This document shows, piece by piece, positions 173-3,611 of a stretch of DNA of 64,000 nucleotides; position 1 is the first letter of the stretch, and each line of letters opens with the position of its first letter. A program made the translations under genes and the position numbers. Source of the DNA: an uncultured Gemmatimonadales bacterium (GTDB lineage Bacteria > Gemmatimonadota > Gemmatimonadetes > Longimicrobiales > Gaopeijiaceae); the NCBI GenBank assembly GCA_963809895.1, contig CAWELD010000003.1:1472001-1536000 (forward strand), read 5' to 3'. A model generated the notes under the pieces. The model did not search any database and was not told the origin of the DNA. It saw only the letters and a list, made by a program, of their open reading frames with translations.

Positions 173-855
173 GTGGGGTCCTCGTCGTATGCGTTGCGTG
201 CCATGCGGATGAAGCTGCGAACCCGCCCGGCGTCCTTGATGCCCGGACGGATCTCCACACCGGAGCTCACGTCGACCACGTCGGGCCGGAGCCGGCGTAT
301 CGCTTCGCCCACGTTGTCCGGCTGCAAGCCGCCGGCCGCGATGAAGGTCAGATTCCCGGGGAACTCGTCGCGCAGAGGCGCCACCAGATCCCACGGGAAT
401 CGCACTCCCGACCCGCCACGATGCTCCGGGTGCCAGCCGTCCAGAAGAAGGCCGTCCGCCAGGGGGCCGTACAGGTCCAGCGCCTCCCGCACCTCGGCGG
501 CCGTACGAACGCGGAGCGCCTTCCACAGCCGCCAGGACCCCAGCTCCCGCAGGGCCTCCAGCACCCTTGGGGCTTCGTTGCCGTGCAACTGGAGCACGCT
601 GGCGCCCGTAGCCCGGGCGAGCTGCGCGGCCCGGGACGGCGTCTCGTCGACCAGCACGCCCACCAGGGGGCGGCCCGTCTCGCCGGGGTAGCGGGTCGCG
701 AGCCCCGGCTCCACGGACCTGCGAAAACCGGTGGACAGGATCGCACCGAGATAGTCGGCGCCGGCGTGGGCCGCTGCAAGGGCGTCCTCGAGGCGGGTGA
801 TCCCGCAGATCTTCACCTCGGGACCGAGCCGATCCTCCATCTCCGGGTCAGCCAC
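169..855 (-). CDS. trpF: Phosphoribosylanthranilate isomerase
   Basis: [28 protein letters not shown] and VDVSSGVE motifs; lies between trpC and trpB. Start could be ATG at 840. Confidence 0.95.
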
Positions 856-1675
856 GGACGGTCTCGCTGCGGGCCCGGCCGGCCAGCTCCCGGACCTTCG
901 CCCCCGGGTCCGGCGCCTTCAGGATGGACTCGCCCACCAGCACGGCGTCCACGCCGGCCTTGCCGAGCCGGGCTACGTCGTCACCGGTACGGATGCCGCT
1001 CTCGGAGACCACCACCACCTCGTCGGGAAGGCGCTCCAGCAGGCCTTCGGTGACGGCGAGATCGGTTCGGAAGGTACGGAGATCTCGATTGTTGATCCCG
1101 ATCACGCGCGCGCCCGAGCGCAGCGCTCGCTCGAGCTCGGTGGCGTCGTGCACCTCCACCAGCGCCGCCATCCCCAGACCCTCCGCCCGTTCCCTGAGAT
1201 CGCGCAGGGGGGCGTCGTCCAGGATGCGCACGATGAGGAGCACCGCGTCGGCCCCGGCGGCCCGGGCCTCATCGACCTGGATCGCTTCCAGGGTGAAGTC
1301 CTTGCGGAGCGCGGGCAGCGGCACGGCGTCGCGCACCGCGGCCAGATCGTGGAGAGAGCCACCGAACCAGGGGCCGTCGGTGAGCACGCTGACGGCGGCC
1401 GCGCCGGAGCGCTCATAGCCCGACGCCAGGTCGGCCGGGTCCAGGTCCGGACGGATGGCCCCCGCCCCCGGCGAGCGGCGCTTCACCTCGGCGATGACCG
1501 ACACCGAGTCACCCCCGGCCAGCGCCCCGGCGAAATCGCGGGCCGCCGGTGCCGCCTCGGCGCGCTCCCGGAGCTCGGCGGCGGCGGGCTTCAACGCCGC
1601 GATCTCGGTGCGCTTCGTCTCGACGATGGCCTGCAGGATGTCGCCCTGCGGCCTCGATCCTTGCGTTTCGGGCAA
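848..1675 (-). CDS. trpC: Indole-3-glycerol phosphate synthase
   Basis: IAEVKRRSPG, SVLTD, LRKDF, GINNRDL and SESGI motifs. Start placed at TTG 1675 behind AAGGA, because the ORF-track start at 1744 overlaps lexA. Confidence 0.93.
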   Translation of the reverse strand: MPETQGSRPQGDILQAIVETKRTEIAALKPAAAELRERAEAAPAARDFAGALAGGDSVSVIAEVKRRSPGAGAIRPDLDPADLASGYERSGAAAVSVLTDGPWFGGSLHDLAAVRDAVPLPALRKDFTLEAIQVDEARAAGADAVLLIVRILDDAPLRDLRERAEGLGMAALVEVHDATELERALRSGARVIGINNRDLRTFRTDLAVTEGLLERLPDEVVVVSESGIRTGDDVARLGKAGVDAVLVGESILKAPDPGAKVRELAGRARSETVRG

Positions 1676-1689
1676 CGTTCGGGTATCCT
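1661..1689 (+). promoter_or_regulatory. Putative sigma70-type promoter of lexA
   Basis: TTGCGT(1661-1666)-N17-TATCCT(1684-1689), about 40 nt upstream of the lexA ATG. Confidence 0.65.
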
Positions 1690-1709
1690 TACTTCGGTTC
1701 CTGTTCGGT
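1666..1709. promoter_or_regulatory. Two candidate LexA operators, YTTCGG-N5-GTTCGG
   Basis: TTCGG at 1667/1678 and at 1693/1704, each pair with an 11-bp period. One pair lies in the promoter spacer, the other over the expected start site. Confidence 0.6.
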
Positions 1710-1730
1710 ACCCACCGATGGAGGGCACGC

Positions 1731-2342
1731 ATGCCCCTGACCAAGCGTCAGAAAGAGATCCTCGATCACATCAGCGCGTTCATCGAGGAGTGGGGGTACG
1801 CCCCGAGCTTCGAGGAGATCGCCGAGCATTTCGGGTATTCCTCGCTGGCGACGGTGCACGAGCACCTGAGCAATCTGGAGCGCAAGGGATACATACGGAA
1901 GGCCTACAACGAGAGCCGCTCCATCGAGCTCGTGGACCGCGACGGAAGCGGCACCTCGGGCATGGAGCTTCCCCTCCTCGGAAGCGTGGCCGCGGGCCTC
2001 CCCATCGAAGCGGTCGAGGACAACGAGACCCTGAGCGTGCCACCGGACATGGTGCGGCGCAACCGGGAGAACTACGTGCTCCGGGTGCAGGGTGACTCGA
2101 TGATCGACGAGCAGATCCGCGACGGGGACTACATCGTGGTGGCGGCGCAGGACACCGCCGACGACGGGCAGATGGTGGTGGCGCTGGTGGGCGGGGACTC
2201 GGCCACCGTGAAGAAGCTCTACCGCGAGGCGGGCAACCGCATCCGCCTGCAGCCGGCCAACCCCACCATGTCCCCCATCGTGGAAGACGCCCGCAACGTC
2301 CGTATCCAGGGCGTGGTCGTGGGCGTCATCCGCAAGTACTGA
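1731..2342 (+). CDS. lexA: SOS repressor LexA
   Basis: LTKRQKEIL...GYAPSFEEIA wHTH, VAAG cleavage site, GDSM (Ser) and TVKK (Lys) catalytic dyad; GGAGG SD before ATG 1731. Confidence 0.97.
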   Translation: MPLTKRQKEILDHISAFIEEWGYAPSFEEIAEHFGYSSLATVHEHLSNLERKGYIRKAYNESRSIELVDRDGSGTSGMELPLLGSVAAGLPIEAVEDNETLSVPPDMVRRNRENYVLRVQGDSMIDEQIRDGDYIVVAAQDTADDGQMVVALVGGDSATVKKLYREAGNRIRLQPANPTMSPIVEDARNVRIQGVVVGVIRKY

Positions 2343-2512
2343 TGCCCGCCGAGACCGCGCGCCGGCGCACCTTCCTGGTGGGTCGGCTCACGCACCGGAC
2401 CCGGGAGATCCAGTGGGTGGAGCCCCAACCGTCACCGCTCCCGGGGCCGTGGTCGCTCAAGGCGGTGGTGCGGGAGCGCGCCCTGCAGCCCGCGCTCCGG
2501 CTGGTGCGCTGA
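2342..2512 (+). CDS. 56-aa hypothetical protein translationally coupled to lexA
   Basis: TGATG overlap with the lexA stop; nearly all codons end in G/C. Translation: MPAETARRRTFLVGRLTHRTREIQWVEPQPSPLPGPWSLKAVVRERALQPALRLVR. Not in the ORF track (shorter than its smallest entries). Confidence 0.6.
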   Translation: MPAETARRRTFLVGRLTHRTREIQWVEPQPSPLPGPWSLKAVVRERALQPALRLVR

Positions 2513-2555
2513 CCGCCGCTGGTCAGGGGCAATCCCGAGGATTCCCCGGCGGCCT

Positions 2556-3611
2556 TCAGGCGTTGGAGGCTGCAGCCAGCGCGTCGAGCTTGGACAGCGC
2601 AGCGCCCGAATCGATGCTTTCGCGGGCGACCGTCACACCCTCCTCGAGAGACGCGGCGGCGTCTGCCACGTAGATGGCCGCGCCGGCGTTGAGGAGCACG
2701 GCCGAGCGCGCGGCGCCCGACTCCTTCCCCTCGAGCACCCGCCGGATGAGGGCGGCGTTGTCCTGGGGCTCCCCTCCCCGCAGTCCCTCGAGCCCGTGCG
2801 GCTCCAGACCCAGGCCAGCCGGCGTCACCTCGCGCTCCACCACGCCGTCGGGGCCGAGCTCCGAGACCTGTGACGGACCGCTGGGGCTGAGCTCGTCCAT
2901 GCCCGGCGAACCGTGCACCACCAGCGCCCGCGTGTGACCCAGGGCGGCCAGCGCCTCCACGATGAGGGTCCGCAGCGCCGGGTCGGCCACGCCCACCACC
3001 TGCCGGCGCGCGCCCGCGGGGTTGGTGAGGGGTCCCAGGATGTTCATGATGGTGGCGATTCCCAGGCCACGACGGACCGGCGCCACGTGCCGCATGGCCG
3101 GGTGAAGAAGCGGTGCGAACATGAAGACGATCCCCACCTCGGCGAGGATCTCGCCCATGCGCTCGGGCGTCAGATCGATGCGCACGCCCAGCGCCTCCAG
3201 CACGTCGGCGCTGCCACTGCGCGAAGTGAAGGAGCGGTTACCGTGCTTGGCCATGCGCACCCCGGCGCCGGCGGCCACCAGCGCCGCAGCGGTGGAGATG
3301 TTGAAGGTGGTCACGGCGCCACCGCCGGTGCCGGCGGTGTCCACCAGCGCGTCGGGATCGGCCGACTCCACGGGAACCATGGCGTTGCGCAGCGCCCGCA
3401 CGCCGCCCGCGACCTCGGCAGGAGTGATGCCCTTGGTTCGGAGCCCCATGAGCAGGGCGGCCATCTCGATGTCGGTGGCCACCCCGGCCATGAAGGCGTC
3501 GAAGGCCTCCTCGGCCTCGCCGATGGTCAGGTCCGCGCCGCCGGAGACCTTGAGGAGGAGGGCCGGAAAGTCCGGAAGCGGGGCCTCGGTGGGCGGAGGC
3601 GTCTGCGCCAT
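2556..3611 (-). CDS. trpD: Anthranilate phosphoribosyltransferase
   Basis: DTAGTGG, FNIST, KHGNRS and NILGPLTNP motifs. Confidence 0.97.
   Translation of the reverse strand: MAQTPPPTEAPLPDFPALLLKVSGGADLTIGEAEEAFDAFMAGVATDIEMAALLMGLRTKGITPAEVAGGVRALRNAMVPVESADPDALVDTAGTGGGAVTTFNISTAAALVAAGAGVRMAKHGNRSFTSRSGSADVLEALGVRIDLTPERMGEILAEVGIVFMFAPLLHPAMRHVAPVRRGLGIATIMNILGPLTNPAGARRQVVGVADPALRTLIVEALAALGHTRALVVHGSPGMDELSPSGPSQVSELGPDGVVEREVTPAGLGLEPHGLEGLRGGEPQDNAALIRRVLEGKESGAARSAVLLNAGAAIYVADAAASLEEGVTVARESIDSGAALSKLDALAAASNA

Follow-up and report, generated by a model that had tools for sequence, protein, structure and literature searches.

A small gene behind lexA in Gemmatimonadota may encode an unstable SOS effector with exchangeable C-terminal signals

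SspB of E. coli is an adaptor of the ClpXP protease, and the cleavage fragment that it delivers is that of RseA. Its XB peptide, given as RGGRPALRVVK in the accessible part of PMC3983244, binds the N-domain of ClpX, and His23 of E. coli ClpX is described as important for SspB binding (PMC8808172, in the sections available). Genes for small SOS division inhibitors are often found beside that of the SOS repressor, and proteases are reported to clear both SulA and YneA (PMC13689564, PMC13396833, as far as their accessible text goes). C-terminal His signals, including that of SulA and one ending in FTVH, are described as autonomous Lon degrons in the available portion of PMC11986505. The SOS response of Gemmatimonadota seems undescribed: a literature search that mostly covered journals outside subscription yielded no paper on it or on a LexA box of the phylum.

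We analyzed a window of 64,000 nt (the whole stretch of DNA under study) from an uncultured member of this phylum, in which a sequence-only reading had taken an unannotated ORF directly behind lexA for an SOS-induced ClpXP mini-adaptor or anti-adaptor, or for an unstable SOS effector. The closest records to the LexA of the window are titled Longimicrobiales or Gemmatimonadota. As that reading had stated, the ORF begins in the lexA stop codon, its ATG overlapping the TGA as TGATG, has a host-like GC3 (0.95 vs 0.92 for lexA) and ends, after 56 codons, in QPALRLVR (Table 1). The gap between the two genes was -1 or +2 nt in 25 loci, with frequent overlap of stop and start, and judging by the TGATG arrangement the small gene is translationally coupled to lexA. 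It is a real gene under purifying selection (dN/dS about 0.3-0.6; 0.34, 0.30, 0.38 and 0.63 in four clades). Differences among relatives fall mainly at third codon positions, all synonymous codons are in use for the invariant Gly, Pro and Phe, and the gene is present as a single copy in the source genome. An RNA element or an antisense shadow of trpD was ruled out by the codon pattern together with the lack of overlap with trpD here. In two expression runs (word share 0.04), coverage was confined to lexA-like sequence from other organisms and did not extend to the small gene, on which they are uninformative.

Table 1. Features of the lexA locus in the window.
Feature	Position	Strand	Basis or remark
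Small gene, 56 aa, undescribed family	2342..2512	+	TGATG coupling to lexA, codon pattern, relatives
lexA, 203 aa	1731..2342	+	Peptidase_S24 and LexA_DNA_bind domains
Conserved core (residues 8-44), a basic beta-hairpin (RxxFxVGR and, farther on, a hydrophobic strand) followed by PxPGPW and the last strand, LxAVV	2363..2473	+	Alignments, column profile, predicted hairpin
Tail PALRLVR, resembling the ClpX-binding XB peptide of SspB	2489..2509	+	Kept in genus, swapped or absent elsewhere
Inferred lexA promoter, TTGCGT-N17-TATCCT	1661..1689	+	Conserved in relatives; below consensus-scan threshold
Candidate LexA box 1, TTCGG-N6-TTCGG, between -35 and -10	1667..1682	+	
Candidate LexA box 2, TTCGG-N6-TTCGG, just past -10	1693..1708	+	
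trpC (IGPS), divergent from lexA; probable TTG start within box 1	848..1675	-	
trpD, convergent; ends short of the small gene in the source genome	2556..3611	-	

The lexA promoter region carries a direct repeat that we propose as a candidate LexA box for Gemmatimonadota, to which LexA would bind. The pattern TTCG-N7-TTCG was found in 146 of 148 lexA upstream regions and exactly twice in 130. A matrix built from these regions gave 23 sites above 17 bits in the source genome, among them pairs of sites before an imuB-like gene, dnaE2 and mraZ and single sites before uvrA, a radical-SAM gene and a GIY-YIG nuclease gene (the names imuB-like, uvrA, radical-SAM and GIY-YIG are putative assignments from the sequence); the candidate regulon beyond lexA has boxes at G000:C3:1379735, 1379752, 1384957, 1385007, 2081488 and 88970 and at G000:C10:225356. 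An independent test found the box before 19 of 19 imuB-like, 15 of 30 mraZ and 0 of 29 clpX loci; the recA site is weak (13.3 bits). Genome-wide, TTCGG-N6-TTCGG (28 occurrences) is no commoner than the same repeat with other spacers (36, 12, 33 and 10), and the box therefore rests on position, not on abundance. Since the same box precedes lexA, the imuB-like gene, dnaE2 and uvrA, LexA-controlled induction of the small gene is well supported by inference, and its SOS induction, as first proposed, appears very probable from the lexA linkage and the boxes.

Two boxes at G000:C3:1536640-1536683 (locus L372), past the right end of the window, are ~210-240 nt upstream of mraZ, and mraZ-upstream boxes lie mostly at -208 to -217, a hint that SOS may control the division gene cluster directly. 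Near-identical 516-aa ORFs at G000:C3:2236135 and 2556542 each start at a strong box and may represent an SOS-controlled mobile or nuclease gene that is repeated. The imuB-like gene directly follows its boxes (L177:1384-3032; G000:C3:1379776 onward), and no imuA was found in the source genome. A separate ~97-aa ORF behind it seems to resemble the ImuB C-terminal domain, as if the gene were split. We discarded the small gene as a replacement for ImuA in a lexA-imuA-imuB-dnaE2 cassette: it gave no RecA-like or family match, and its distribution does not track imuB, close homologues of which occur in 56 of 60 genomes of family f1 and are at most weak in f2 and f3, opposite to the pattern of the small gene.

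The lexA pair lies within the trp operon, antisense between trpD and trpC (window 848-3611), a layout found in 64 of 90 lexA-anchored loci of the class, so that a trp transcript would cross lexA in antisense. The lexA promoter (window 1661-1692) seems to double as the trpC start on the other strand, where its -10 element, read as AGGATA, would serve as the ribosome site for trpC; of 49 loci in which the promoter could be recognised, 24 have an in-frame trpC TTG within box 1.

The prediction of a conserved, unannotated gene in this position was borne out among relatives. The DNA behind lexA was scored with one profile in 93 of the 101 genomes of the relative set (8 were left out), and one of these stopped at a contig edge, which left 92 scorable genomes. 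The small gene was present in 74 (Gemmatimonadota, mostly Longimicrobiales; 69 full, 5 with the first half only). It was absent behind lexA in the remaining 18, including 4 of 20 in the source genus, and is therefore dispensable; one of the 18 loci holds a degenerate copy, as judged by eye. In other families of the class, 3 of 20 carried it (f7; one genome was retrieved via the gene itself), and it was found in 0 of 39 genomes of families f4, f5, f6, f9 and f13. A phylum-wide profile search of limited sensitivity matched 24 of 301 genomes, and a search of 1.84 billion representatives with a profile returned 281 clusters (E <= 0.001), the best 150 of which were inspected; the top match (P0003, 1809 aa, repetitive) was discarded as a repeat artefact. 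Fusion to a larger domain was likewise rejected, the six longer matches among 8000 scored candidates having low-complexity extensions only. Some short homologues (L078-L083, L088-L098, L106-L109) consist of the first hairpin only (MRxxFAVGRL...) with PGPW lost; several nonetheless terminate in TVH or similar.

What the family conserves is a basic core of ~38 residues (RxxFxVGR...PxPGPWxLxAVV), not the tail, and residues G14, G35 and P36 of the core are invariant in 146 sequences. AlphaFold2 modeled a confident hairpin at about residues 12-25 and left the remainder unpaired (pTM 0.35), which suggests that the core may fold on a partner or in an oligomer. The protein is predicted to be soluble and not membrane-like: the best 19-residue hydropathy of the window protein is 0.29, and only 2 of 219 members exceed 1.6. 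No match was found for 46 members in Pfam, NCBIfam or PHROGs (best E 0.12), for the small protein in a PDB sequence search, or for the small gene in phage genomes. Two ESM Atlas look-ups came back blank, and the fold search, run with weak models (pTM 0.29 and 0.35), gave no Z >= 2 and no Foldseek match. The idea that the core mimics the LexA cleavage-site strand was discarded because profile comparison gave a probability of 0.2%; a complex prediction with two LexA chains and two cores (score 0.01) gave no verdict either way.

The likeness of the tail to SspB holds, since the XB peptide as given above shares PALR-x-V-basic with the window protein. XB-like ends were found in 22 of 211 non-redundant homologues and in 6 of 3339 background ORFs (0.18%), and hydrophobic-His ends in 32 of 211 and 11 of 3339, respectively. 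The 211 derive from 263 sequences reduced to 219 at <70% identity, less 8 that the pattern could not split, and the background comprises long ORFs roughly called in the source genome; apparent read-through into antisense trpD, seen in some long tails of relatives, was excluded from motif counts. All tail and clamp patterns were fixed after viewing the sequences, so these enrichments are descriptive, and as a description the PALR-like ending exceeds chance. A quick LexA tree (224 rows) required 4 changes for the XB label and 12 for the His label, counts that show clustering only, since related sequences share labels.

The sequence-only reading had likened the tail to the ClpX-docking peptide of SspB and had named free variation of the C-terminal motif as evidence against its interpretation. 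Within the source genus the XB-like end is kept in 11 of 16 gene copies, which are 11 of all 12 such copies, but across the order the ending largely does vary: the 74 copies comprise 12 XB-like, 8 hydrophobic-His (Lon-type xxVH), 26 with a stop directly after the core, including 16 of 17 in family f2, and 28 others with a tail and no recognisable end signal. The window protein itself has no C-terminal His Lon degron. ClpX and two Lon homologues are encoded in the source genome; aligned by cysteine spacing, E. coli ClpX His23 corresponds to Asp17 of the ClpX found there, one point that would speak against exact SspB-type docking. Neither SspB nor SulA was found in the 61 genomes searched, and the Pfam search of the window protein and 46 members detected neither the SspB substrate-binding domain (PF04386) nor the SulA domain (PF03846).

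A further class of short motif, absent from the sequence-only reading, appeared in the relatives. QxxLF or QLxLxL words, which match the clamp-binding consensus as set out in the accessible part of 10.64898/2026.05.27.728225, occur in 17 of 211 homologues (shuffle mean 0.23, maximum 3 in 1000), at the N-terminus, at the C-terminus or within the hairpin loop, and one is identical to the Hda motif given in the same part of that source. Such a clamp-type motif is present in 4 of the 5 source-genus copies that lack an XB-like tail, and 2 of the 16 genus copies combine it with an XB tail; five longer members combine QLNLEL/F with an xxVH end. The window protein has no canonical clamp motif, and a (V/I)(L/I/V)PFP word is present in four members.

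Of the options first offered, an unstable SOS effector fits these data best, and a ClpXP mini-adaptor as the family function does not, given that tails vary. We give an even chance to the view that the small protein is a soluble, unstable SOS effector that is passed by its tail to ClpXP in the source genome and to Lon in related ones. LexA would repress the lexA-small gene transcript via the two boxes, and DNA damage would induce both genes, a step that is well supported; the basic hairpin core would bind a partner and do the work; and the tail would be a self-destruct tag, docking at the ClpX N-domain in the genus and, as an xxVH end, feeding Lon in cousins, so that the protein would be cleared once SOS ends. 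As to the target, we lean to the replisome (or translesion synthesis), favoured because relatives repeatedly carry clamp-type motifs, with a SulA-like division block second; lexA adjacency and the lack of SulA point to the latter by analogy with DdrR, YneA and SulA. The box upstream of mraZ offers an alternative route to division control and counts against the effector. The direct evidence consists of gene status, position, selection, boxes and motif statistics.

It is unlikely that the protein is instead a mini-adaptor in which the core or a clamp motif grips a substrate, be it LexA fragments or translesion polymerases bound to the clamp, and the tail tethers ClpXP or Lon to it. The close match to XB and the pairing of an N-terminal clamp motif with a C-terminal protease tag, in the two genus copies and the five long members, are consistent with such a role, which the lack of SspB would leave vacant, but the protein has no homology to SspB, and LexA carries a buried ClpXP degron of its own (PMC5742171, citing Neher 2003, in the text available). 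The premise of the sequence-only reading that SspB helps deliver the LexA N-terminal fragment found no confirmation. An adaptor would be expected to retain its protease tether, yet a third of the copies, nearly all of f2 included, are tail-less, and a C-terminal His is reported to act as a degron on the very protein that bears it (PMC11986505, in part); we therefore prefer the effector. A ClpXP mini-adaptor cannot be the general function of the family. A related scheme, in which core, clamp motif and ClpX or Lon tail, combined differently from lineage to lineage, link the replication clamp with AAA+ proteases as a minimal SOS tether, seems to us rather doubtful; if true, the protein would recruit a protease to translesion polymerases on the clamp, or to LexA fragments, and bring the mutagenic phase of SOS to a close.

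We hold it still less probable that the core binds LexA or LexA-DNA and modulates repression or cleavage in the manner of DdrR with UmuDAb, the tail limiting lifetime. The tight linkage to lexA, with its narrow range of gaps, and the basic core would agree with this, as would the precedent of DdrR, a small neighbour described as a corepressor in the part of the literature available, but profile similarity to LexA was not found, LexA and its boxes persist in many genomes without the small gene, and the clamp-type motifs would go unaccounted for. It is likewise very unlikely that the tail, perhaps a clamp-type motif that has drifted, binds some partner that is not ClpX, or that the protein has an unrelated role: intermediate ends such as QLRLL, the loose fit of QPALRL to QxxLxL and the loss of ClpX His23 would allow it, yet orthologues with an LR(I/L)VR end lack the Gln, and a single protein can bear a clamp-type motif at one end and an XB motif at the other. 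Least probable is an XB mimic, induced in the SOS response, that occupies the N-domain of ClpX and protects ClpX substrates from degradation, since selection acts on the core and not the tail and most members lack XB, even though free XB peptide is described, in the source text available, as inhibiting ClpXP degradation of FtsZ and lambda O.

The locus supplies a candidate LexA box, a candidate regulon and a new family of small, probable SOS proteins in genomes where SulA and SspB were not found. A single core that bears a tag of ClpX type or Lon type, a clamp-type motif or no addition at all looks like a natural experiment in modular proteolysis, and a core that blocked division or acted at the clamp would represent a new soluble checkpoint mechanism. 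By position and boxes, the small gene would rank as LexA-controlled and repressor-adjacent in the manner of SOS division inhibitors. Like SulA, the Lon-cleared E. coli division inhibitor, the protein is soluble and under putative SOS control, and a hydrophobic-His ending of the SulA kind recurs in many homologues, but there is no sequence match, the family is only 40-60 aa and the window copy has an XB-like end. SidA, YneA, SosA and ChiZ are likewise described, in the excerpts available, as small, lineage-restricted and beside or under the SOS repressor; unlike them, the small protein lacks a transmembrane segment and its gene is in tandem with lexA, not divergent. DdrR of Acinetobacter, a corepressor and division inhibitor beside umuDAb, is similarly a small orphan-like gene repressed by an SOS repressor, according to the accessible description, but the small gene is again tandem, not divergent, and the comparison is by description, not homology. 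The last seven residues resemble the XB of SspB, whereas the SspB domain is missing, a substrate groove is not known and the tail is not conserved family-wide. UmuD, in which a short signal tethers UmuD' to ClpXP, is, as far as the accessible source describes it, an SOS protein with the ClpX N-domain contact predicted here; the small protein differs in having no S24 peptidase domain and in carrying its signal at the C-terminus. The family is a new one in a known kind of slot, with unusual, exchangeable docking motifs.
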